Source: an uncultured Gammaproteobacteria bacterium (lineage in GTDB: Bacteria; Patescibacteriota; Patescibacteriia; Magasanikbacterales; GWA2-37-8). Taken from it: a DNA stretch of 64,000 bases. The position numbers and the translations under genes were made by a program. Position 1 is the stretch's first letter. Every line of letters starts with the position of its first letter. The notes beneath the pieces were generated by a model. The model saw only the letters and a program-made list of their open reading frames with translations. It searched no databases and was not told the DNA's origin. The stretch is taken from the NCBI GenBank assembly GCA_964596525.1, contig CAZQUL010000001.1, forward strand, positions 1,212,312 through 1,276,311, given 5' to 3'. Below, piece after piece: positions 5,739 to 27,845 of this stretch.

Positions 5739-6041
5739 TTAGGATTTTTCAAGGCTTGCGTAACGATCGACTAACGCTTTCGCCTCATCAATTGCCTTTT
5801 TAATATTTTCATCAGCAAATGTTTCTGGCACACCTTCTACATCTTCCTCTTTACGAAAATGACCATTTATTTTTTCAAGACCGGGAAGAACTTTGGAAAT
5901 TTCGGTTACTATTCCATCCCGCTCTTCGTTCCGCGCCCAGGCATGCATCGAGGTGAGACGTTCCTGGAGTTCACCGGCGCGTTTTTGGAGCATTTCTTTT
6001 TCAAATTTGGGTTCGAACATGACTTTTTGTTCGGGGTTCAT
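5739..6041 (-). CDS. Small acidic hypothetical protein (100 aa) next to the distal end of the CRISPR array
   Basis: Uninterrupted ORF with an AT-rich upstream region; predicted helical; no recognisable family. Confidence 0.4.
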   Translation of the reverse strand: MNPEQKVMFEPKFEKEMLQKRAGELQERLTSMHAWARNEERDGIVTEISKVLPGLEKINGHFRKEEDVEGVPETFADENIKKAIDEAKALVDRYASLEKS

Positions 6042-6138: not shown

Positions 6139-7050
6139 ATCTACAAAAGTAGAAATCGAATGTATGTATTAGAGCTCGATGTTAACGATCCCACCGCCAA
6201 ATCTACAAAAGTAGAAATCGAATGTATGTATTAGAGCGGGGAGAATTGAACGTGGACAAATTATCTACAAAAGTAGAAATCGAATGTATGTATTAGAGAA
6301 CCCGGGCCTTATAAGGCCGCTCACATCTACAAAAGTAGAAATCGAATGTATGTATTAGAGAACCCGGGCCTTATAAGGCCGCTCACATCTACAAAAGTAG
6401 AAATCGAATGTATGTATTAGAGATTAATTTCCATGCCACGGGTGAACTGAATCTACAAAAGTAGAAATCGAATGTATGTATTAGAGTATTTTTGGGTGGG
6501 GGGAGTACCAACCATCTACAAAAGTAGAAATCGAATGTATGTATTAGAGCCGAGAGAAGATTCAGGAGCAAAACGCATCTACAAAAGTAGAAATCGAATG
6601 TATGTATTAGAGAAAAAGACGGTGAAAGTTTTGAGCAAGATCTACAAAAGTAGAAATCGAATGTATGTATTAGAGTTCAAGATGGCATGCCGTACGACAA
6701 TATCTACAAAAGTAGAAATCGAATGTATGTATTAGAGAAATGGTGATGATGAACGCTTATTGAAATCTACAAAAGTAGAAATCGAATGTATGTATTAGAG
6801 AGCGAGACCATCAGTTTGCGAGAAGACGATCTACAAAAGTAGAAATCGAATGTATGTATTAGAGTGGCACGACAGGAAGCGCGATTGCAATCTACAAAAG
6901 TAGAAATCGAATGTATGTATTAGAGGATCGCTGAATCAAGATGCTCTTACATCTACAAAAGTAGAAATCGAATGTATGTATTAGAGTGCTAAGAATCGCG
7001 CAAAAAAATCTGCTATCTACAAAAGTAGAAATCGAATGTATGTATTAGAG
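6139..7050 (-). CRISPR. Type V-A (Cas12a) CRISPR array of 15 repeats and 14 spacers, transcribed on the minus strand. The 36-bp repeat reads CTCTAATACATACATTCGATTTCTACTTTTGTAGAT on the transcribed strand.
   Basis: 15 exact copies of atctacaaaagtagaaatcgaatgtatgtattagag begin at 6139, 6201, 6263, 6325, 6387, 6451, 6514, 6577, 6640, 6702, 6765, 6829, 6890, 6951 and 7015. Spacers are 25-28 nt. The repeat 3' end on the minus strand is the Cas12a crRNA hairpin AUUUCUACUUUUGUAGAU. Confidence 0.95.
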
Positions 7051-7217
7051 TCCAACTTTCGCTCTGTTGAGCATAAAAAAGATACAAACCCCGCGAATGC
7101 GGCGGCGACTTTTGGGCCCAACAGAGCGAAACCGAAAAAATAAGGACGGAGGTTTTGGCAATACAGACACACCGATTTCTCCCTACCCGAAGGTAAGGCA
7201 GATTGAGTTGTCAAAGT
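7051..7217 (-). promoter_or_regulatory. CRISPR leader between cas2 and the first, newest repeat
   Basis: Non-coding 167 bp between the cas2 stop (7218) and repeat 15 (7015-7050). It contains a 12-bp inverted repeat ttcgctctgttg(7057-7068)/caacagagcgaa(7113-7124). Confidence 0.5.
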
Positions 7218-7499
7218 TCATTCAAAGACGACCACTTCTTGTTCTTCATTGACCGCGTATCCGTAACGATAGATCTTTTTTTCGCAACCAATGCACAGAG
7301 GAAATATAACAATGCTATCGGCGTTTGTAAAGTGCGGCGCATAGCTCATTTCGATCTCCGCGATGATATTGTCGAGTGCGCGCGGACTGTTCTTTATTTC
7401 GAACACCGAGTACTGCAAACGTCGTCCGTATTTCTCCAAAAATTTTGAAAAACGAGAGCGCCGACGGTTCGACTCAAAATCGTAAGAGGCGATAAACAT
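7218..7499 (-). CDS. cas2: CRISPR-associated endoribonuclease Cas2
   Basis: 93 aa with the Cas2 hallmarks MFIASYDF...RRRSRFSKFLEKYGRRLQYSVFE. Sits 3 nt downstream of the cas1 stop. Confidence 0.85.
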   Translation of the reverse strand: MFIASYDFESNRRRSRFSKFLEKYGRRLQYSVFEIKNSPRALDNIIAEIEMSYAPHFTNADSIVIFPLCIGCEKKIYRYGYAVNEEQEVVVFE

Positions 7500-7502
7500 A
7501 CG

Positions 7503-8471
7503 CTATAGCGAGAATGTCGGAAATGGTCTTTTCTGATCACTAGGCAAATCCATTTCATTGAAAATATAGAAATAGAACGAATGAATATACTTAAACACTT
7601 CTTCTTTGCGATCCATAATCGCCTGCGCGAAAATCGTTGTATATTTTTTCTGATGCTCGTACATAATTTTCCACTCCCCTTTTTCCTCAAAAAAATCTTT
7701 TTCGTCGATCTGTTTCAAGTTGTATGATTTGACGAGTTGACGCTCGATAATGCAACGCATCGGTTCCATCAAATCACAAGCCAAGGACTTACGCTGGAAG
7801 AAAAGTTTGTGGTAGAAGCCCTTATACGTATCGAGACCATGCAGCGACAGGAGAGCACCCGTAACATGGAAAAGAAACGTATAGCCGATATCGAGAAGCG
7901 TATTATTGATATCCACTTTAGTACGCGGCATACGGCGGTACCATTTTATATCCCTAAAATAAGCCTGATAAAATTCTTTACTCGCAACGCCTTCGAGACC
8001 AAGAAGCGATTCGCCACTATTGACACTCATTACTTTAGCCAATTTTTCAGCAAGCCAGTCATCGCCAATCTGGCTACGTTCTTTAAGCAAGAAGTGTTGA
8101 TTTTTAATTTTGTTGGCCACGATCAGTTTTGCCATAGTCAGTTCCTGATCCGAGGTCAGAGCGTACTGTTTGCCACGCAAGATAAAATTACCGGCGGCTT
8201 CGGACGGAATTTCGGCATAGCATTTCAAGTTGTCGCCGAGCAGGAAGATAGAAACTCCATACTCGATGCACTTACGGATGAGCGGCGAGCTGATAGTGCA
8301 CGTACCGGTAATAAAGAGCGCCAAGATTTTATGGCACGAGAGCTGGTTTATTACCTCACCATCGCGCCGCAGGCAGACGTTTTCGTTCTTGAACGAGAGG
8401 TTGTTTTCTTTAAGATCGCTGCCGTTAATAAAGAGGATCTGTTTTTCACGGAAGTCAGGTAAGCTGATCAT
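7503..8471 (-). CDS. cas1: CRISPR-associated integrase Cas1
   Basis: 322 aa with a Cas1-like fold and conserved acidic/His positions. Its ATG overlaps the cas4 stop (ATGA). Confidence 0.9.
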   Translation of the reverse strand: MISLPDFREKQILFINGSDLKENNLSFKNENVCLRRDGEVINQLSCHKILALFITGTCTISSPLIRKCIEYGVSIFLLGDNLKCYAEIPSEAAGNFILRGKQYALTSDQELTMAKLIVANKIKNQHFLLKERSQIGDDWLAEKLAKVMSVNSGESLLGLEGVASKEFYQAYFRDIKWYRRMPRTKVDINNTLLDIGYTFLFHVTGALLSLHGLDTYKGFYHKLFFQRKSLACDLMEPMRCIIERQLVKSYNLKQIDEKDFFEEKGEWKIMYEHQKKYTTIFAQAIMDRKEEVFKYIHSFYFYIFNEMDLPSDQKRPFPTFSL

Positions 8472-9034
8472 AGGTTTTCGGGCACATCATCACGGCAGAG
8501 CGGGCGGTAGATGCACTGCGCGCATTTGTTAAGATTGGTTTGGAGTTGCCAGTTAGCTGGATTGCGGTCATCGCGCATACGGGCGATGAAAGCGAAGAAT
8601 GGCTCGAGATCTTTGTCGGTCGGCCTGGCTATCGGGTAGCGCTTGTTGTCGTCGAGCGAGCGGATAACAAGGCTTTCGACCGGGCACCCCATTTCTTCAA
8701 GGCAGATCAGCTGCGCGTAGAGCTGGTAACGGTAACCGTCGAAAACCTGTTTCACTTTCTTCTTGCGTTCGATGAGTAGTTTCTTATCAGCGTCGTAGAT
8801 GTCGATCTTGCCCGCGAGCCCGTGCACATCGGAGTACACGGGCATGCCGACGCGGTAACGCTTGAGCGAAGAATACGTTCCTTTATCGATGGCTTCATGC
8901 GCGATCTTGCCAGCGGTCTGGTAATGGCTATGGTAGGTTTCGGTATTGAAGTTATCGTAGATGGTTTTGAGGTAAACCGAGCGCGGGCAGAAGATGAAGT
9001 CGTTGAGTTTAGAGATTTGGATGTAGGAGTCCAT
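8468..9034 (-). CDS. cas4: CRISPR-associated Cas4 (RecB-like nuclease with an Fe-S cluster)
   Basis: About 188 aa with a Cys at the N-terminus plus C-terminal CxxCxxxxxC (NKCAQCIYRPLC) and a RecB-nuclease core. The ATG at 9032-9034 sits 1 nt from the cas12a stop. Confidence 0.85.
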   Translation of the reverse strand: MDSYIQISKLNDFIFCPRSVYLKTIYDNFNTETYHSHYQTAGKIAHEAIDKGTYSSLKRYRVGMPVYSDVHGLAGKIDIYDADKKLLIERKKKVKQVFDGYRYQLYAQLICLEEMGCPVESLVIRSLDDNKRYPIARPTDKDLEPFFAFIARMRDDRNPANWQLQTNLNKCAQCIYRPLCRDDVPENL

Positions 9035-9035
9035 G

Positions 9036-12000
9036 TTAGGTATTGATACTAACAAATTTTTTCCAATCTCTTACAGCACTATCCCAATCTTTGTTCGAGA
9101 TAAATCCGGGATCATCATAATTTTTCCTTATCTTATACAGTTGCATTAAGCCCTTTCGCGCAATATTGTACGCCCCGTTTGCATCTCCGTTTGTAATTAC
9201 TGACAAATTACCGTTCATCTCTGATTTTCGAGAATCAAACGAACAAGACGGACACTCTATATAGTCGGCGTCGCTTCCTGTCTTTTCTTTATTGTAATTT
9301 CTTATCTGTGTAATAAGATTGAAGTAGAAAATTATTGCTTGAAAAAACTCAGTTTCCAATATTCTTCCTCTCTCCACCAATTGTTTGCTTATATCTTTCA
9401 GCTCAACACCATTCTTCTGAAATAAAGATTTCAGATTAGTTGTTATGGAGTTACTAACCCCGTCATTAAATTCAATCGTTCTACTTTCAACATCATTCCA
9501 TTTCGTCCTGGAAACATTCGAAAAAACCACATCAACTCCTTCGTAGAAATCATTCTTGCCTTTATTTTTACATTCCTGCTTCCATGCATATTCAAAACTG
9601 AAGCGATCTTTTACCGAATCATAAGAAATTTTAATATCACCAGACTTTAATAATTTAATGATCTTTTCTTTAGACTCAGAATTCTTTATGTGGAGTCTTT
9701 TGCGCCAGCCGCATTTTGGATGAGGGCAAATTTTTGATGTATAACTAGCCGGAATATAAATTACCGCACCAATCTGGTTGTTTTTCTCCATCTGTTCTAC
9801 AGAATCGATTAATGGGGTAAGCTGATATGCCCCTCTAAAATTGGCACGTTCTTTATCGACCAAATAACCAAGCTTATCAATCAAAGATTTTTCAAAAGCT
9901 TGATATACTTGCCTTTCACGGAAAAATCTTGTTTTCTTAAAATTACCACCCAGGTCTTCGAGCACGTTCAACGTGGCAATGCCTCGATCAAAACCAGAAA
10001 AAATCTCACGTGAAATCCAGTGAATTACATTACCCAGATATGCTTCCTTTAAGGATCTGATGGGCGTCATCTTTTGCCAATTCTTCTGCTCCCAGTCCCG
10101 CTGCCCTTCCCGACTTACCAATAGTTGAAAATAATCGACTGGTTCTTTTACCTCAGTGCCGTCGGCTAATTTTCTAACTTTTTCACCGACTTTATTTAAA
10201 CTTCCGCACTTGCGATCCTCAATCTCACCATATTCGTTCAAAATACAATAATAAATAAGATTATTTTCACCCCGATCCATACCTAGGATTCTTACCGGAA
10301 CTTGAGCGATAAGTTTTTTATTTATCTCTTTATTGAATTCATCTAAGTCCATCTGCTTACCGAAATTCAATCGTATTTTAAGATGTAAAATTAAAGCATC
10401 TTTTGCGAACCGCCGGTGCTGTATTACTTCTTTTTCTTTATTTCCATCTCTTTGATCAATAAAAACAATATCTTTTCCGTTTTTTTGATATGTTTTTAAC
10501 CTCACATCTTCCGTCTTTGGACGGAACCTTATTTCTGCCTTTCCATCAAGTTCGTAGATACACTTGCTTGTGTCTTTACTTTTAATATTGGCAATATTCT
10601 CTAAGCTAAAAAGTTCAAAAAAATATTGAGTAAACAGATTTACTTTAGAAGGCAGATTAGCTTGCTTATACGGATTATTTTTACCTAATTTATTTTCAAT
10701 ATCATAAAAATCTTTTGTATGTATCCTGAATAAGAAAAGGCTGCCATCTTTAATATTTTTTTGAACATAATTTTTATTTACTCTTTTCAGATCAATCCAA
10801 TAAGCCTGCCTCTGAACATGAGCAACAAAATCATCTCTATCTTTGTAGTCCTGTGGTCGTCTAAAATTTAGATTAAAGCGTCTCCAGTCGTCCCTTTTTC
10901 CTAAACAGGAAATATAATATTCGATAAGTTGATCCATTTTCTCTTTAGGAAAATTAAAATCTAATCTTTTTTCTTTTTTTCGCAGCTCCTTAAACTCGTC
11001 GTATTCTTTCTTTATGTTTATATATTTCTCTAATTTTTCTAGATCACCATCTAAAAATTCTTCGGCGAGTTTCAACTTCTTATTTTTCAATTCCTCAGGT
11101 TTTTTCTTGTCATTAGCTTTTCCAAAGGCAATGCCCTCGAATTTGCCAATATCAAGTTGTTTGTACTCTATCTTTTCATAATAATCTTCATCATCAGCTA
11201 TATTATAAGCTTCTTTAACCTCTTCAATTTTTTTGCCAAACTTTTTGTGAAATAAATCACCTCTCTTATTCCCAACACCTAAGTAATACTCATTATTCTT
11301 ACGCAGTAGAACGCCGTGATAATCTAGCTCCTTATTCATATCCCACCCATCCAAAAGATGATCGGCACCGAAGTTCAATTTAATTTCTTTTGTAGTATTC
11401 CGAGATCTCTTTTTTAGATAATTGCCAAATTTATCAAAGTAGATAAACGGAACAAAATCATCGCCTATAAACCCGTCAAATTTTTCATAAAAACCTCTAT
11501 CCTTCTCACCTTCATCGATTTTTGTTTCCTGCTCTTCATTCAACCAAAATATTTCTGCTCGTTTTACAATATCTAAGACTGCCCTTGAATAACTAAGAAC
11601 AGCGAGACAGAAATCCCCTTCGTCCTCATCTCTCATTTTTTCATCATTCTTAACTTTATCCTCAAACCATCTGATTGCTTTTTCCAAAACAATCTTTTTC
11701 TGCTCCAAAGGAATTACGGCCTCCTTTTTTCCTCCCATGACTATCGTTTCGCCTCCTAAAATCAATAAATCTACCTCATGTTTCAAAAGTGAGATGAAGA
11801 CCTCAAACTGATCTCTATTTTCAGCGATATTATCAAAGGAATTTTTATATTCCAATCGGTTATTTTTAAAAAAATTCTTGATATCATCAAAAGTAACAAG
11901 GTCTAAAACAGTCCGCCCGTCATGAAAAATAGCCATAAATTTTTCCGGTTCTCGAAAAATCTTATTTGCAAATGTATTTACTTTATTCTTCGCCAAAAAG

Positions 12001-13235
12001 ACTTTGGAAAGATTTATCCCATTCTTATCATGATCCAAAAAGAAGGATAGCAGGCCCTGGGCTTTTGCAACTTTTTCTTCACTATGTACCAAAAAGAAAT
12101 TCAATTCACGGATCAAATCAGAATCATTCTCAATGAATATTTCTTTTCGAAAGATCTGAGAAAGAATTCTTTTCTGCAGACGTACAAAAAAGGGATATTC
12201 CCTTTTGTTAAACTTACTTCTTTCTTGACCTTTTTTCTTCTGTTTTTGAAGTTCCTTATGTTCGCTCTGTTTTTTTTGAATATAAAGGTTAACAACCTGA
12301 TTAAGACCAATACCACTTACCATCCTTTCTTTTTTATGAGATTCACCACCTAAAATTCTTGCATAGTTATCAATACCTTGCTGGGTAATGCAGTTATTAT
12401 AATAGTCAACGTCAAAAATACCAGGCTTCTCGTCTTCATTATTTCGACACAATCTCTCCGTGATTAACGAAAAATCAATATCAGTATTTTTATAGTTATC
12501 TTGGTAATTTTTTATATTCTTGTAAAAGAGCTCAAAATTACTCAAAATCCTTTCACTCAAAGACCCCTTCTTACCTTTTACCGAATAAAGAAGTTCTCTC
12601 TTTTTACAGAAATCAGCTAAATACCCAGCGTCCATTTCAAAAATATTTTTTGGACTACCCTGTTTATCTTGATATTCAATATCAGGAAATTCTAGCTCTT
12701 TATGGTTATTTTTTTCTCGTAAATCCTTTACTTCAGCTGAAGTAAAGCTCTCTTTTAATTTTAAAAGGCATTTTTTTGGAGATAAGTCGTCCGCTCCCGC
12801 CTTTTTAAAAACTCTATCAATTTGCTCTAGCAGAGCACCTTGAGCGAGCAAGAGCCTAGTTTTTAATTCTTTAATTTTCATCTTCTTTTCATTTTTATCA
12901 GAATCTTTATCTTTTTTACCTTGAGCCAAGGCATCTAAAGCAGCGGCATAGTTGAGCAGGTCTTTCTTCTCAAAATTTAAACTTCTCAACGAATTATCAA
13001 TAATCTTTCGATGTAGAATATCTAAATAAAATTTAACAACCTTAATATTCTCGGCCATTTTCTTATCAGCTTCGATAATTCCATGGCTTTTTAAAGCACT
13101 CCATTCTTCATCTTCAACCAGCTCATTAGTTCTATCATCTACTTTCAAGGGGACGAGCCTAAATTGAAGAGTTCTGGATAATTCGTATAAATTTTTAAAC
13201 TCCTCAATCTTACCAACTCCTTTTTCTTTTGACAT
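9036..13235 (-). CDS. cas12a: Cas12a (Cpf1) type V-A effector nuclease, about 1399 aa from ATG 13235 (1407 aa from an alternative TTG at 13259)
   Basis: N-terminal LYELSRTLQFRLVPL matches the Cas12a WED motif (compare LSKTLRFELIP). RuvC-I is LGMDRGENNLIYY, RuvC-II is VLEDLGGNFKKTRF, and RuvC-III/Nuc is NGDANGAYNIARKG. Gene order is cas12a-cas4-cas1-cas2-array. The gene is strongly AT-rich. Confidence 0.92.
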   Translation of the reverse strand: MSKEKGVGKIEEFKNLYELSRTLQFRLVPLKVDDRTNELVEDEEWSALKSHGIIEADKKMAENIKVVKFYLDILHRKIIDNSLRSLNFEKKDLLNYAAALDALAQGKKDKDSDKNEKKMKIKELKTRLLLAQGALLEQIDRVFKKAGADDLSPKKCLLKLKESFTSAEVKDLREKNNHKELEFPDIEYQDKQGSPKNIFEMDAGYLADFCKKRELLYSVKGKKGSLSERILSNFELFYKNIKNYQDNYKNTDIDFSLITERLCRNNEDEKPGIFDVDYYNNCITQQGIDNYARILGGESHKKERMVSGIGLNQVVNLYIQKKQSEHKELQKQKKKGQERSKFNKREYPFFVRLQKRILSQIFRKEIFIENDSDLIRELNFFLVHSEEKVAKAQGLLSFFLDHDKNGINLSKVFLAKNKVNTFANKIFREPEKFMAIFHDGRTVLDLVTFDDIKNFFKNNRLEYKNSFDNIAENRDQFEVFISLLKHEVDLLILGGETIVMGGKKEAVIPLEQKKIVLEKAIRWFEDKVKNDEKMRDEDEGDFCLAVLSYSRAVLDIVKRAEIFWLNEEQETKIDEGEKDRGFYEKFDGFIGDDFVPFIYFDKFGNYLKKRSRNTTKEIKLNFGADHLLDGWDMNKELDYHGVLLRKNNEYYLGVGNKRGDLFHKKFGKKIEEVKEAYNIADDEDYYEKIEYKQLDIGKFEGIAFGKANDKKKPEELKNKKLKLAEEFLDGDLEKLEKYINIKKEYDEFKELRKKEKRLDFNFPKEKMDQLIEYYISCLGKRDDWRRFNLNFRRPQDYKDRDDFVAHVQRQAYWIDLKRVNKNYVQKNIKDGSLFLFRIHTKDFYDIENKLGKNNPYKQANLPSKVNLFTQYFFELFSLENIANIKSKDTSKCIYELDGKAEIRFRPKTEDVRLKTYQKNGKDIVFIDQRDGNKEKEVIQHRRFAKDALILHLKIRLNFGKQMDLDEFNKEINKKLIAQVPVRILGMDRGENNLIYYCILNEYGEIEDRKCGSLNKVGEKVRKLADGTEVKEPVDYFQLLVSREGQRDWEQKNWQKMTPIRSLKEAYLGNVIHWISREIFSGFDRGIATLNVLEDLGGNFKKTRFFRERQVYQAFEKSLIDKLGYLVDKERANFRGAYQLTPLIDSVEQMEKNNQIGAVIYIPASYTSKICPHPKCGWRKRLHIKNSESKEKIIKLLKSGDIKISYDSVKDRFSFEYAWKQECKNKGKNDFYEGVDVVFSNVSRTKWNDVESRTIEFNDGVSNSITTNLKSLFQKNGVELKDISKQLVERGRILETEFFQAIIFYFNLITQIRNYNKEKTGSDADYIECPSCSFDSRKSEMNGNLSVITNGDANGAYNIARKGLMQLYKIRKNYDDPGFISNKDWDSAVRDWKKFVSINT

Positions 13236-13268
13236 ATGATATGACTTAAAAAATAACAAAAATCAAAA

Positions 13269-13340
13269 AGGGACGACGGTTGTTGCCCAATAGATGTGCT
13301 TACCAAACGGTTAAGCGCTAAAGGACCGTCGCCCCTTTTT
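13269..13340. terminator. Long-loop hairpin with flanking A/T runs between the NUDIX gene and cas12a; putative insulating terminator
   Basis: agggacgacggt(13269-13280)/accgtcgcccct(13325-13336), with one mismatch, flanked by aaaaa and ttttt. Confidence 0.3.
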
Positions 13341-13500
13341 AGTGCCTAACGGCATAAGGGGTGAAGGTAATAACATCTATTGTGGCAACATTCTGACTAT
13401 ACAGAACTCTGCTCAAAAAATCGAGCACGCCTCATGTGGATAGATTTTTTGGGATTAAAATTTGGACCGATCTTACATGATCCTAGATAAAATAAGAATA

Positions 13501-13531
13501 AAGTCCCCACTTGAAACTGGGGACTCTTTTT
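13501..13531 (-). terminator. Rho-independent terminator downstream of the NUDIX gene
   Basis: Stem agtcccca/tggggact with loop cttgaaac. A U-rich tract follows on the minus strand. Confidence 0.5.
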
Positions 13532-13565
13532 AGAAGCTAGTTGTTTTAGGAAAAAATAACTATTC

Positions 13566-13970
13566 TTACTGCCCACTCCACACCACTCCCCCACCCTCCC
13601 CTTTCTCAAAAAACTCCACCACTCTTTGTCTTTGCCGTGCTTTAAATGTCTCTGGAAGCTCATCGAGTGAAAAATACCCCACCATATCCGCCTCATCGCT
13701 CGTGGTAGGAACTTCATCGGTAGCGTAACCCAAAAAGGTAAACACTAAATCATTCTCTTTGGGTTTAAAATCCACACGTAAAAGCTTCTCGAGTTGTATA
13801 GTCGTGAGTCCGACCTCTTCTTTGATTTCGCGTATAGCCGCATCCCAGGGCGACTCCCCTTCTTCAACATGTCCGCCCGGGAGGTTCCAGGCGTCCCGGT
13901 CGCGACGGTGACACAAGAGGATTTTGTTGGTTTTCTGGTCAAGAATGATGGTGAAAGCGCCGAGGGTCAT
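13566..13970 (-). CDS. NUDIX hydrolase
   Basis: The Nudix box GGHVEEGESPWDAAIREIKEEVGL (GX5EX7REUXEEXGU) is present. Confidence 0.75.
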   Translation of the reverse strand: MTLGAFTIILDQKTNKILLCHRRDRDAWNLPGGHVEEGESPWDAAIREIKEEVGLTTIQLEKLLRVDFKPKENDLVFTFLGYATDEVPTTSDEADMVGYFSLDELPETFKARQRQRVVEFFEKGEGGGVVWSGQ

Positions 13971-18793: not shown

Positions 18794-18910
18794 AGTAGTA
18801 AAAAACCATCACCACCAGCTTGACCTCTTCTCCCCAAAAGCACAACCCTTTGGTGTGGATAGAAAACCCAGCTCGTGGTACCATCCCTACGCTCAAACCA
18901 GAGGAGTATC

Positions 18911-19726
18911 ATGAGAAAAAGACGTTCATTTCTGGACACGCTCAAACTCGGCGTGTTCATCACCATCCACCTCGTCCCCTTTCTTGCCATATGGACCGGC
19001 GTTACCGCGCGAGCACTCGTTCTTTTCGGGGTGCTCTACGTGGTAAAAATGTTTCTCGTGACCGGCGTGTACCATCGGTACTTCTCGCATCGCGCGTACA
19101 AGACGAGCCGCTTCATGCAGTTTACTCTTGGGTTTCTGGGGACAGCGTGCCTGCAACGGGGGCCCTTGTGGTGGGCGGCGCGGCACCGGCATCACCATCG
19201 TTACTCGGATGAACCCGAGGATGTGCATTCGCCGCGCCGCGGGCTCTGGCAATCGCATGTGGGATGGATTGTCGGGAGTGCGTACAATGCCACGGATACG
19301 GATCAGGTGCGCGATTTAGCGAAGTATCCAGAACTTCGCTGGCTCAACAATTATCACGGCATCGCTCCCCTTCTCCTCGCCGTGCTGTGCTATTACCTGG
19401 CGGGGTGGAGCGGCGTGGTTGTCGGGATGGGCTGGTCGGCCGTAGCGTCGTGGCATGCCACGTTTACCATCAATTCGCTCGCCCATCTGTGGGGCACGCG
19501 ACGGTACGCAACGAAAGATACGAGCCGCAACAACGGACTGCTTGCGCTTCTTACCCTCGGCGAAGGATGGCACAACAACCACCACCGCTATCCGGGCGCG
19601 GCGCGGCAAGGGTTTTTCTGGTGGGAAATCGATGTGACGTATTACATCCTGCAAGGGTTTGCAGCGCTGGGGCTGATCTGGGACCTGCGCGAGCCGCCAG
19701 CGCAGATTATGCGCACTGCAAAGTGA
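18911..19726 (+). CDS. Acyl-CoA (stearoyl-CoA-type delta-9) fatty acid desaturase
   Basis: Histidine boxes HRYFSH, HRHHH and HNNHH; TM helices; RBS gaggag before ATG 18911. Confidence 0.75.
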   Translation: MRKRRSFLDTLKLGVFITIHLVPFLAIWTGVTARALVLFGVLYVVKMFLVTGVYHRYFSHRAYKTSRFMQFTLGFLGTACLQRGPLWWAARHRHHHRYSDEPEDVHSPRRGLWQSHVGWIVGSAYNATDTDQVRDLAKYPELRWLNNYHGIAPLLLAVLCYYLAGWSGVVVGMGWSAVASWHATFTINSLAHLWGTRRYATKDTSRNNGLLALLTLGEGWHNNHHRYPGAARQGFFWWEIDVTYYILQGFAALGLIWDLREPPAQIMRTAK

Positions 19727-23781: not shown

Positions 23782-25077
23782 TCACAACAACTTTTCCTGC
23801 ACACTATTATCGTCTCCCCCACCGTCGAGCTCAAGCAACGGAACGGTTGCCAAGCTCGCACCAACAATACCCTGCAGATCGCCGTAGACGCCGGTCGTGC
23901 TGAGCACCACCCGTTCGATTTCTTTTTCGCGCCGGCTCCAGATGCGCTGCATGGCGCGCTTTTCGGCCTCGAGCTCTTCTTTGAGGCTTTTGAAACCCAT
24001 GACGATATTCTCAATGCGATTACGGAACTGCGGACTGGAAATGTATTGATACAAAAAATCTTTTTTCTCTTCGCGGCCGACAAGCGAATTTTTGGTTTGG
24101 TGCATTTCAAGGACATGCGCGCGGATCATGGCCGTAACCGGTACGAGGCAACCGTACTCCACCACCCACACCCCTTCAATGCAACCAAATTGCTTGATGG
24201 AACTGGGTAGCGCTTTAGTCACCAAAATGCACACATCGGCTTGCACGAGTGCCTGGTCGCTCTTGAGTTTTTTAATCCACTCGTCGCTCCAGAGTTTGGT
24301 GTTTTTCGATTCCCACAAAATGACACCGCCTTTTTGGCCAAAGTTGGTTTGCACCGTGTGCACCAAATCCGCGCCGTTGATGCCGGTCGGCACATCGTCG
24401 ATTCGATCGAGTGGAAACGCAGTGGTGAGGAGGTGCTTTAAATCCGCCTCCTGCACCTCACCCTGGATCTGCATCGAAGCCTGCTCGGATTTGCGCTGTG
24501 CTTCATCGAGCGCTTTTTTGAGCATGTCCATCTGTTTGTCTTTTTCTAATTCTTTCTTGCGAAAATCTTCTTGAATGACACGCAGCCGTTCGTCGAGCGC
24601 CTGTGCCTGTTCAGTTTTGAAGCGCGTTTCGAGTTTAATGCGCTCTTCGTCGAGCTTGCGCTGGATTTCGAGTTCCGCATTCTTGGTTTTTTCTTCGAGT
24701 TCGCGGGCTTTGGCGCGCAATTCAAGCTCGTTTTTCTGCGCTTCTTTGAGCTGGCGATCACGTTCTTCTTTTTGCAGCTTCAAGTCCTTAAGCTCGAGCC
24801 CGAGTTTTTCCTGCGCTTTTTCTTGCGCCACGGCCCACAGCTTTTCCTTTTCGGCTTTCATTTTTTCATCAAGGTGCTTTTGCAAATCAGCGCGGTCTTT
24901 TTCGATTTTCTCGCGTTCGGCAAGCAAGGCTTTTTCTTGAAGAGCCATTTTTTCGGCACGAACTTTTTCTTTAGCATCAAACTCCGCGCGCAGTTCGTCT
25001 TTGATCTGCAAAGCCAGTGTTTCGGTAAGGGCTATCTCGTGCTGACACTCAGGACAACGGATTGTATGGTCGGGCAT
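23782..25077 (-). CDS. DUF2130-like protein: N-terminal zinc-ribbon (CPECQHEI), a long coiled coil and a C-terminal globular domain
   Basis: MPDHTIRCPECQHEIAL followed by about 200 aa of K/E-rich coiled coil; architecture typical of DUF2130. Confidence 0.55.
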   Translation of the reverse strand: MPDHTIRCPECQHEIALTETLALQIKDELRAEFDAKEKVRAEKMALQEKALLAEREKIEKDRADLQKHLDEKMKAEKEKLWAVAQEKAQEKLGLELKDLKLQKEERDRQLKEAQKNELELRAKARELEEKTKNAELEIQRKLDEERIKLETRFKTEQAQALDERLRVIQEDFRKKELEKDKQMDMLKKALDEAQRKSEQASMQIQGEVQEADLKHLLTTAFPLDRIDDVPTGINGADLVHTVQTNFGQKGGVILWESKNTKLWSDEWIKKLKSDQALVQADVCILVTKALPSSIKQFGCIEGVWVVEYGCLVPVTAMIRAHVLEMHQTKNSLVGREEKKDFLYQYISSPQFRNRIENIVMGFKSLKEELEAEKRAMQRIWSRREKEIERVVLSTTGVYGDLQGIVGASLATVPLLELDGGGDDNSVQEKLL

Positions 25078-26615: not shown

Positions 26616-27845
26616 ATGAACAACCACCTTCGCTTTCCCGATAATTTTCTTTGGGGCGCCGCCACATCGTCGCATCAAGTAGAGGGGCATAACTATAACG
26701 ATTGGACTCTCTGGGAAGAATCCAGCCTCCGCCACAACGAACTCAGAGGTAATGGCCATATCGAAAAGTACGGCCTCAAAAATTTTCTGTCCCGAACCGC
26801 AGCCAACCACTTCCACCTCTACAAGGAAGACTACGAATTAGCCAAAGAACTCGGACATAATGCCACCCGCCTATCAATTGAATGGTCGCGCATCGAACCA
26901 GAGGAGGGCGTTTTTAATGAAGCCGCACTCGCCTACTACCGCACAGTGATCGCTCACCTTACAACGCTCGGCATTACCCCTCTAGTCACGCTCTATCATT
27001 GGACGGTTCCAGTTTGGTTTTCCAACCAAGGAGGCTGGCTCAACCCTGCCTCACCTGGGCAGTTCGCGCGTTTTGCCGCCCACATCGTAACCGCACTCAA
27101 AGATGACGTAACGTTCTGGATCACCCTGAATGAACCGGAAATTTACGCGACCAACTCATATTTAAACGGCATCTGGCCGCCGCAGCGCCGGAGTTACATC
27201 GCTTTTTGGCGCGTTTTCCATCGTCTTATAGCCGCACACCGGCAGGCATTTTCAGCTATCAAAAATATCCAACCGGACGCTCAAGTTGGTATCGCCAAAA
27301 ACAATATCTACTTCGAAGCAGCGGGTAAAAATCCGTTCAACCGTCTATTCAAAAAAATCTACGATTATGCGTGGAATTTCTATTTTCTGGACCGGATACG
27401 CACGTATCAAGATTTCATTGGCCTCAACTATTATTTTCACAATCGCATTGACTGGGGATTCATCCGCAACGAAAATAAGGCACTTTCTGATCTCGGTTGG
27501 GAGCTGCATCCGGAAGGGATTTACCATGTGCTTACAGATCTACAACGCTACCGACGCCCTATCTATATCACGGAAAATGGTTTAGCAGACGCAACCGATA
27601 GTCAACGCGCCTGGTTCATCAAAGAAATCCTCCGCCACGTTCACCGCTCGATTGAGGAAGGGGTGGATGTTCGCGGCTACCTGCACTGGTCGCTTATCGA
27701 TAATTTTGAATGGGACAAAGGATTTTTCCCTCGTTTTGGATTAGTCGCCGTGGATTATGCTACTTATAAACGCACACCACGTTCTTCGGCCCACATCTAC
27801 GGTGCTATCGCCAAGAACAATACACTACCAATTGATTCACCCTAG
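26616..27845 (+). CDS. Glycoside hydrolase family 1 beta-glucosidase
   Basis: FLWGAATSSHQVEG N-terminal signature, acid/base TLNEP, nucleophile ITENG. Confidence 0.85.
   Translation: MNNHLRFPDNFLWGAATSSHQVEGHNYNDWTLWEESSLRHNELRGNGHIEKYGLKNFLSRTAANHFHLYKEDYELAKELGHNATRLSIEWSRIEPEEGVFNEAALAYYRTVIAHLTTLGITPLVTLYHWTVPVWFSNQGGWLNPASPGQFARFAAHIVTALKDDVTFWITLNEPEIYATNSYLNGIWPPQRRSYIAFWRVFHRLIAAHRQAFSAIKNIQPDAQVGIAKNNIYFEAAGKNPFNRLFKKIYDYAWNFYFLDRIRTYQDFIGLNYYFHNRIDWGFIRNENKALSDLGWELHPEGIYHVLTDLQRYRRPIYITENGLADATDSQRAWFIKEILRHVHRSIEEGVDVRGYLHWSLIDNFEWDKGFFPRFGLVAVDYATYKRTPRSSAHIYGAIAKNNTLPIDSP

Follow-up and report, generated by a model that had tools for sequence, protein, structure and literature searches.

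A composition break at the cas12a/cas4 junction and probable effector replacement in a type V-A CRISPR-Cas locus

Layout and base composition of the locus

The minus strand of the window (the whole 64,000-nt stretch analyzed here, positions 1,212,312 to 1,276,311 of contig CAZQUL010000001.1) carries a complete type V-A CRISPR-Cas locus, in which cas12a differs sharply in base composition from the genes beside it. Read along that strand, the order is leader RNA, cas12a, cas4, cas1, cas2, CRISPR leader, and array. A conserved leader RNA at 13258-13390 scored 87.2 bits with a covariance model on the minus strand versus 28.5 on the plus strand, and it is followed by cas12a (9036-13235, minus strand, as are all the following; 1399 amino acids [aa], ATG start), which was identified by both Pfam and structure matches. 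A single nucleotide, position 9035, separates cas12a from cas4 (8468-9034, 188 aa, ATG at 9034; Pfam Cas_Cas4) and marks a breakpoint in both composition and homology. Next come cas1 (7503-8471, 322 aa; Pfam Cas_Cas1) and cas2 (7218-7499, 93 aa; Pfam CRISPR_Cas2). The 167-nt CRISPR leader (7051-7217) is homologous by blastn to that of L007 (related loci are given by L numbers), and the array (6139-7050) consists of 15 identical 36-nt repeats (CTCTAATACATACATTCGATTTCTACTTTTGTAGAT) and 14 spacers of 25-28 nt.

The window's Cas12a matched solved Cas12a structures over residues 11-1390 (E = 3e-79) and gave Pfam E-values of 5.7e-48 for RuvC_1, 1.1e-21 for REC1, and 1.5e-08 for PI, and its NUC domain is present in a precomputed domain list. 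The RuvC residues D987, E1093, and D1351 are present in the contexts GMD987RGE, LE1093DL, and GD1351ANGAYNIA, as assigned by motif rather than by residue-by-residue structural alignment. Judged from its sequence, the effector looks intact. The top database matches to Cas1 and Cas4 carry the name "type V CRISPR-associated," and the relatives all come from Patescibacteria/Candidate Phyla Radiation (CPR) or similar metagenome-assembled genomes. In a contig from a second sequencing run (L154:1-1436), Cas12a was called with 1380 rather than 1399 residues and the DNA is 100% identical to the window; the shorter call is probably due to another choice of start or to a difference outside the fetched stretch. 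The cas12a/cas4 junction, a 1-nt gap in the window, frequently carries insertions elsewhere (L002, L003, L013, L027, L055, and L103), as in L027 (a gap of 3.1 kb) and L055 (1.6 kb); at L003:9099-10285, cas12a is separated from a cas4 fragment by an open reading frame (ORF) that has an IS1595-type zinc ribbon.

The G+C content (GC) of cas12a is 33.6% and its GC at third codon positions (GC3) is 31.4%, compared to 52.3 ± 3.8% (range 42.9-60.0) and 56.3 ± 8.2% for the 51 other ORFs of the window, which correspond to z scores of -4.9 and -3.05, respectively; the window as a whole is 50.1% GC. Cas12a is 13% Lys, and we ruled out a Lys-rich amino acid composition as the cause of the low GC by correcting for amino acids at synonymous sites. 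With the same amino acids and host synonymous preferences, the expected GC3 is 52.2% versus the observed 31.4%, and the corrected z is -16 for cas12a versus -5.8 to +5.6 for host genes. In tetranucleotide usage, cas12a likewise correlated at only 0.33 with the remainder of the window, compared to 0.88 ± 0.04 for host windows of 4.2 kb.

The genes on the other side of the junction behaved differently. Between adjacent 100-nt intervals, GC stepped from 36% (9000-9099) to 50% (8900-8999). GC and GC3 were 52.4% and 69.8% for cas4, 42.9% and 52.3% for cas1, and 44.3% and 52.1% for cas2, so that the GC3 of all three genes falls within the host range; codon positions 1 and 2 account for the low total GC of cas1 and cas2. 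The tetranucleotide correlation of the adaptation module was 0.70, within the range of 1.8-kb host windows (0.77 ± 0.09). Because the adaptation genes are host-like in GC3, the locus consists of two compositional classes rather than three steps. The original prediction, made from the sequence by eye, had described a stepwise discontinuity from an effector of about 30-33% GC and repeats of 28% through adaptation genes of intermediate GC to flanks of about 57%, with the boundary at the 1-nt junction. The values for cas12a and the repeats (27.8% measured for the latter), the position of the boundary, and an effector outside the host range were all borne out; the intermediate step disappeared at third codon positions, and the figure for the flanks was too high, as the window ORFs average 52.3%. 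Its suggestion that the locus is one acquired block with incomplete amelioration does not fit adaptation genes that are host-like at synonymous sites when cas12a, 1 nt away, is not. We also considered a second breakpoint between cas4 and cas1 (52% vs. 43-44% GC) and rejected it, since L007 and L077 share the GC3 order cas4 > cas1 > cas2; Cas1 is, moreover, the least conserved of the three adaptation proteins in other close pairs as well, which also counts against such a breakpoint.

Within the array region, the 14 spacers are 48.7% GC and the CRISPR leader is 47.9% GC, so the low GC of this region is caused by the repeats only (10/36 G+C). The repeats were AT-rich in all type V-A loci that we examined, whatever the GC of the host, and L005, with a locus GC of about 50%, has repeats of much the same GC.

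To place the step at the junction among comparable loci, we calculated the GC3 gap between adaptation genes and cas12a for 45 type V-A loci with complete genes and flanks, the window included. The gap in the window (0.261) was the largest of the 45, followed by gaps of 0.240 and 0.226, and the mean of the other 44 was 0.050 (sd 0.086). The difference between cas4 and cas12a was 0.370 in the window and reached at most 0.227 elsewhere. The window is thus the extreme end of a continuum, and in our reading, the general GC3 trend reflects effectors that turn over faster and come from a pool of mostly low GC.

Two other genes near the locus are atypical in composition. The 100-aa ORF directly after the array (5739-6041, minus strand) has a GC3 of 36.6%, the lowest of any non-cas ORF in the window, and no Pfam match. 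A strongly atypical ATPase gene with AAA_15 and AAA_21 matches (L001:14956-16539; 33% GC, GC3 26%) lies just past window position 1, ~6 kb from the array in the direction opposite to the cas genes.

Histories of the effector and the adaptation module

The closest relatives of the window's Cas12a were those of L002, L003, and L004 (64%, 59%, and 58% identity, respectively), a lineage whose members are all about 33% GC. The adaptation proteins of L002 and L004 are far less similar to those of the window (46-47% identity for Cas1, 48-50% for Cas4, and 56-60% for Cas2), and their Cas1 proteins rank 52nd and 47th, respectively, of 62 by similarity to the window's Cas1. In contrast, L007 and L077 share 78-79% identity with the window in Cas4, 66-67% in Cas1, and 89-91% in Cas2 versus 34-36% in Cas12a, the last figure being from C-terminal fragments; a longer Cas12a fragment of the same type as the L007/L077 entry, from L076 (906 aa), is 29% identical to the window's protein. 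The same contrast was seen with L005, L006, and L008 (Cas4 59-61%, Cas1 about 59%, Cas2 70-78%, Cas12a 27-37%). In distance-based neighbor-joining trees with 100 bootstraps, the window grouped with L002, L003, and L004 for Cas12a and with L007, L077, L005, L006, and L008 for Cas4+Cas1+Cas2, each with 100% bootstrap support, and the grouping of the window with L002 and L004 received 0% in the adaptation tree. Given these incongruent phylogenies and the foreign composition of cas12a, we conclude that the locus is chimeric and that the history of cas12a differs from that of cas4-cas1-cas2. Across 48 loci, the Spearman correlation of pairwise distances was 0.30 between Cas12a and Cas1, compared to 0.73 between Cas1 and Cas4 and 0.71 between Cas1 and Cas2.

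Comparison at the nucleotide level located the change of history. Homology to L007 and L077 by blastn starts at window positions 9033-9038, where the ATG of cas4 lies (9034), and against L007 it continues at 71.6% identity from the cas4 start codon through cas4, cas1, cas2, and the CRISPR leader into the repeats; the same comparison gave no similarity within cas12a. This alignment puts the downstream breakpoint at the cas4 start codon, i.e., at the module boundary.

The repeats side with the adaptation genes. All 15 repeats of the window are identical and end in TCTACTTTTGTAGAT, without a degenerate terminal repeat. The L007/L077 repeat (CTTTAATACATACATTCG...) differs from that of the window at 1 of 36 positions and the L005 repeat (CTTTAATACATGTATGCG...) at 4, whereas the repeat of L002, the locus with the closest Cas12a, has 7 mismatches (GTTTAATCCATATATAAA...), all in the 5' 18 nt. 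Because of this difference (1 vs. 7 mismatches) and the nucleotide homology to L007, we assign the repeat type and CRISPR leader to the adaptation module and not to the effector. The original prediction had proposed a chimeric origin in which the effector and repeats came together from a low-GC donor; the separate histories of cas12a and cas4-cas1-cas2, incongruent with 100% bootstrap on both sides, uphold its first part, and the match of the repeats to L007/L077 contradicts its second. The 3' 18 nt of the repeat (ATTTCTACTTTTGTAGAT) are identical across the window, L007/L077, L005, and L002. Mature Cas12a CRISPR RNAs (crRNAs) keep the 3' stem-loop of the repeat, which is bound by Cas12a, and the 5' half of the repeat is trimmed away. 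Since the 3' 18 nt are the same in both lineages, an effector swap would be tolerated, and we infer that the hybrid of a foreign Cas12a and a resident repeat should be functional. Two adjacent spacers of the array (6299-6324 and 6361-6386) are identical (GTGAGCGGCCTTATAAGGCCCGGGTT).

Related loci showed different effectors at the same site, with matching sequence on both sides in L081 and L103 and on one side in L007 and L077. Identity between L081 and L103 is 97.8% along the upstream flank as far as the point where the leader terminator ends, and it returns to 96.2% starting 57 nt ahead of the cas4 ATG; the Cas12a proteins encoded in between share 26-30% identity. In these two loci, cas12a is 33-35% GC with a GC3 of 32-36%, compared to an adaptation GC3 of 55-58% and a flank GC of 47%. 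L007 and L077 are 98.1% identical in nucleotide sequence between the start codon of cas4 and the first repeat, and we detected no nucleotide similarity between the 3' ends of their cas12a genes; L076, the cas12a 3' end of which is identical to that of L077, shares 35% aa identity with L007 over 54 residues. Homology also starts at or just upstream of cas4, at lower identity, in the pairs L037/L038, L019/L024, L019/L034, and L020/L034. The reverse pattern, in which cas12a alone is shared, was seen for the window and L002 and for L005 and L035. In a small sample of 12 loci, mean pairwise identity was 0.83 over the 30 nt of cas4 that follow the start codon versus 0.28 just upstream. The relation between the two modules in GC3 also varied: L005 has a host-like cas12a (0.53) and a low-GC adaptation module (0.41), and L062 and L064, in which the histories of Cas12a and Cas1 are congruent, have a cas12a GC3 of 0.39-0.41 versus 0.32 for the adaptation genes.

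Two further observations concern these relatives. The Cas12a proteins of L094 (8858-9775) and L114 (10619-11596) share 97-100% identity outside an internal stretch of ~400 aa (approximately residues 560-1000), in which identity is 40-68%; this looks like an intragenic mosaic, and by its position the divergent segment probably spans the protospacer-adjacent motif (PAM)-interacting region. In L076 (3298-5534), homology to L007/L077 stops within cas1, beyond which lie flagellar-like genes on the opposite strand, indicating either a truncated locus or a chimeric metagenome contig.

Explanations of the composition break

We consider it very probable that the drop in GC at cas12a/cas4 is the scar of an effector-gene replacement in a recombinant two-module locus. 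One module, host-like at synonymous sites, would comprise cas4-cas1-cas2 with its CRISPR leader and repeat type and belong to the lineage of L007, L077, L005, L006, and L008; the other would be cas12a, an unameliorated member of the ~33% GC lineage of L002, L003, and L004. An effector of this second lineage would have displaced the previous one beside a resident or long-ameliorated adaptation module and array, with breakpoints downstream at the cas4 start codon and upstream at or near the conserved leader RNA, and recombination may have proceeded through homology arms supplied by the conserved leader on one side and the conserved 5' end of cas4 on the other. The swap would have occurred in situ in the lineage of this genome, which would make cas12a the newcomer.

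Several points weigh against effector replacement in this form. We found no close relative of the window's genome that would place the exchange directly in its lineage, and the locus may already have been chimeric on arrival. At only 64% identity, the nearest Cas12a supplies neither a donor nor a date. The leader is 80-90% identical to all copies, and for this reason we dropped it as a means of placing the upstream breakpoint, which cannot be placed in the window. The trees are neighbor-joining rather than maximum-likelihood trees. In 29 of the 44 other loci, many of them of mid GC, the GC3 of cas12a is below that of the adaptation genes, and an intrinsic AT bias of cas12a could contribute to the step. 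Protospacers for four spacers were sought in viral contigs, and none was found that would speak for activity. A tblastn search with Cas12a in phage and plasmid collections gave no match, and no vector was identified. We also set aside a possible synteny of the upstream flank with L002, suggested by an M23 peptidase in both loci, as only the leader element and cas12a align and the flanks do not.

If the whole locus came by one horizontal transfer, already chimeric in its donor, the adaptation module could look host-like through the similar GC of that donor. Such a transfer would sit well with the other atypical genes nearby (the ORF at 5739-6041 and the 33% GC gene at L001:14956-16539), and we had no close relative to show an empty or differently filled site. 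However, the GC3 of all three adaptation genes is 0.09-0.18 above that of L007/L077, which fits residence in a ~52% GC genome, in-situ exchange is visible in related pairs, and no integrase, tRNA flank, or island boundary was seen beside the locus, and we therefore regard this explanation as unlikely. The called neighbors (NUDIX, IMP cyclohydrolase, M23 peptidase, and ORFs without a Pfam match) contain no integrase domain, and the nearest tRNA lies at 43 kb, ~30 kb away; flanking direct repeats were not searched for. We give still less credit to the idea that cas12a is AT-rich intrinsically, whether as a Lys/Asn/Ile-rich protein or through selection for AT codons in a long, tightly regulated gene. 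This explanation is largely refuted by the z of -16 that remains at synonymous sites after amino acid correction, by the reverse pattern in L062 and L064 and the host-like cas12a of L005 beside a low-GC adaptation module, and by a phylogenetic conflict that is independent of composition, despite the 13% Lys of the protein, the prevalence of lower cas12a GC3 noted above, and a GC3 gap that rises with host GC (slope 0.49).

The opposite direction of exchange, in which the adaptation module and array arrived beside a resident cas12a, is known elsewhere: L005 shares a host-like cas12a with L035 (78% identity) and has a low-GC adaptation module that is related to the window's. In the window itself, GC3 and tetranucleotides mark cas12a as the foreign part, and the adaptation module, CRISPR leader, and spacers are host-like; we think this direction very improbable here. 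Finally, a chimeric contig joined by the assembler at conserved cas sequences has to be considered, since the source is probably metagenome derived and conserved sequences flank cas12a. Two contigs from separate sequencing runs (L001, 25.3 kb, and L154, 23.0 kb) were nevertheless 100% identical to the window over both junctions, with collapse of the repeat array as the sole difference, and an artifact is accordingly close to inconceivable.

The window can also be compared with several known systems. Islands that were acquired horizontally and are incompletely ameliorated, as reportedly modeled by Lawrence and Ochman, resemble the window in having a block of atypical GC, GC3, and oligonucleotide signature, but the atypical block here is a single gene inside an operon. 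A whole-locus island of uniformly atypical composition was rejected, as only cas12a is atypical and the GC3 and tetranucleotides of the adaptation genes are within the host range. In Francisella novicida, the order is cas12a-cas4-cas1-cas2-array. The window shares this gene order with that locus and with the canonical type V-A locus of Peregrinibacteria GW2011_GWA2_33_10 (L055), and it also shares with canonical loci a 36-nt repeat ending in TCTACT-N-GTAGAT, the RuvC D/E/D residues, and the lack of any sequence found to resemble a trans-activating crRNA (tracrRNA): no 11-mer in common with the repeat was present on either strand near the locus outside the array, either as an anti-repeat or tracrRNA-like sequence or as a solitary repeat-like sequence. 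Unlike canonical loci, it combines an effector and an adaptation module from different sub-lineages and is split in composition; in L002, L004, and L055, all cas genes are of similar GC.

Effector exchange in situ, with the adaptation module and array fixed and with anti-CRISPR pressure as the proposed driver, has been described (Koonin and Makarova 2019, PMC6452270), and we regard the window as a new example of it. The shared features are a fixed adaptation module with its cognate array and conflicting phylogenies; here the replacement is by another variant of the same subtype. The window differs in that the exchange is nucleotide-resolved, concerns a single-effector type V-A locus, and bears the largest compositional scar of the 45 loci; the coincidence of its upstream edge with a conserved leader RNA had no mention that we found in the consulted parts of the review.

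If the replacement occurred as we propose, the window would offer a clean, nucleotide-resolved case within a type V-A locus and would show that recombination scars can be recognized in a cas operon by a step in GC. The comparison of repeats also corrects the natural assumption that they belong to the effector, placing them with the acquisition machinery instead. Our survey suggests that effector turnover is common in these small genomes, with Cas12a and Cas1 distances barely correlated, and this turnover bears on models of the anti-CRISPR arms race and on the mining of Cas12a variants that share one crRNA scaffold.

The leader RNA upstream of cas12a

The leader RNA, ~130 nt directly upstream of cas12a, forms the upstream edge of the low-GC block. 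It contains box A at its predicted 5' end (~13371-13390), a terminator-like hairpin with a U-run (13261-13339), and an invariant 19-nt core (GCTTAACCGTTTGGTAAGC, 13298-13316). Folding energies were -35.9 kcal/mol (z -4.7) for the 3' domain and -49.9 kcal/mol (z -5.7) for the full leader. The covariance model gave a single match to the leader, located on the cas12a strand, in each of 27 sources out of 63, with scores of 57-103 bits versus 23-36 on the opposite strand. An exact-core scan of metagenome contigs returned 76 loci. In 56 of them cas12a lies downstream, and another 10 are too short for a decision; two (L119 and L132) are chance core matches, and the other eight carry the full element with no cas12a homologue detected by a blastp screen. 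We also searched viral contigs for the core and found none.

The unit opens with a conserved extended -10 box, which marks the putative promoter, and box A (TGTCGCCCAATAGATATG) follows ~7 nt later; a sigma-70 scan returned no promoter in the window's copy. The 3' domain is a long hairpin and then a U-run, with 26 consensus pairs, 13 of them compensatory, a result reached by none of 500 shuffles. The hairpin contains box A' (CATATCTATTGGGCGACA), of which box A is the reverse complement, and the box A:A' duplex was more stable in cognate than in noncognate combinations (-20.3 vs. -17.7 kcal/mol, a difference reached in 0 of 5000 permutations). The frequent G-U pairs in this duplex fit an RNA transcribed in the cas12a direction. 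The terminator and box A:A' helices compete for the same CUAUUGG segment, and the full-length minimum-energy fold contained box A:A' (the antiterminator form, with the stem open) in 57 of 68 leaders and the terminator form in 10. The leader is thus predicted to be a two-state structure of the terminator/antiterminator type, with covariation support for both helices. The distance from the U-run to the cas12a ATG is about 29 nt in the window, and transcription of cas12a probably has to pass the leader terminator.

The element is apparently undescribed. Rfam 15 yielded only three tRNAs in the window, with best matches of ≤19 bits (E > 1) at 13150-13600, and our literature searches found no description of a cas12a leader RNA. 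Autoregulators of the CreR/crRNA-like and long-tracrRNA kinds, located upstream of cas effector genes, have been reported, and CreR consists of a repeat-like handle and a partially matching spacer (bioRxiv 10.1101/2023.03.10.532045). Like CreR, the window's leader is a small RNA element situated between a promoter and cas12a, where it plausibly controls effector expression. Unlike CreR, it has a terminator/antiterminator-type structure and no handle-like sequence. We rejected a CreR- or tracrRNA-type RNA for these reasons: there is no handle, no TCTAC-N-GTAGA with ≤2 mismatches occurs in 13236-13565, and there is no anti-repeat. If the leader regulates transcription, it would be a candidate cis-acting structured switch of CRISPR effector expression, of which we found no description in the literature searched, and a testable handle on the control of immunity in these organisms.

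We hypothesize that the leader is a candidate upstream homology arm for the exchange because of its sequence conservation and because the L081/L103 breakpoint falls at the leader terminator. In the eight loci without a detected cas12a homologue, the full element precedes genes of other families, namely, DUF2130 (L095, L145, and L129), NYN (L117 and L126), and Bro-N (L125) genes. In L136, the leader is followed by a DUF3800 gene and then a cas12a-like ORF, and in L144 (core at position 133 after orientation), it is followed by a Bro-N gene with cas9 and cas1 downstream. More speculatively, the effector of CPR-type class 2 loci might be an exchangeable cassette between the ~130-nt leader, as a new RNA family, and the 5' end of cas4. 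The leader would then both gate transcription of the effector, by a terminator/antiterminator switch that responds to some signal, and, being 80-90% identical among unrelated loci, serve as a 5' homology arm for cas12a variants, accessory genes (Bro-N, DUF2130, DUF3800, and NYN), and even cas9. We hold this broader proposal only tentatively and think it somewhat doubtful.

Bro-N, NYN, DUF3800, and DUF2130 genes often lie between the leader and cas12a, and L006 is also among such leader loci. The window contains a DUF2130 gene of its own (23782-25077, minus strand), 10 kb away, with no second copy of the leader before it. Elsewhere in the window, we noted genes for a fatty-acid desaturase (18875-19726), a cytochrome P450 (25175-26551), and a family 1 glycosyl hydrolase (26616-27845), genes that would be unusual in a reduced genome of the CPR type, ~1.3 Mb in size, if that is what this genome is.

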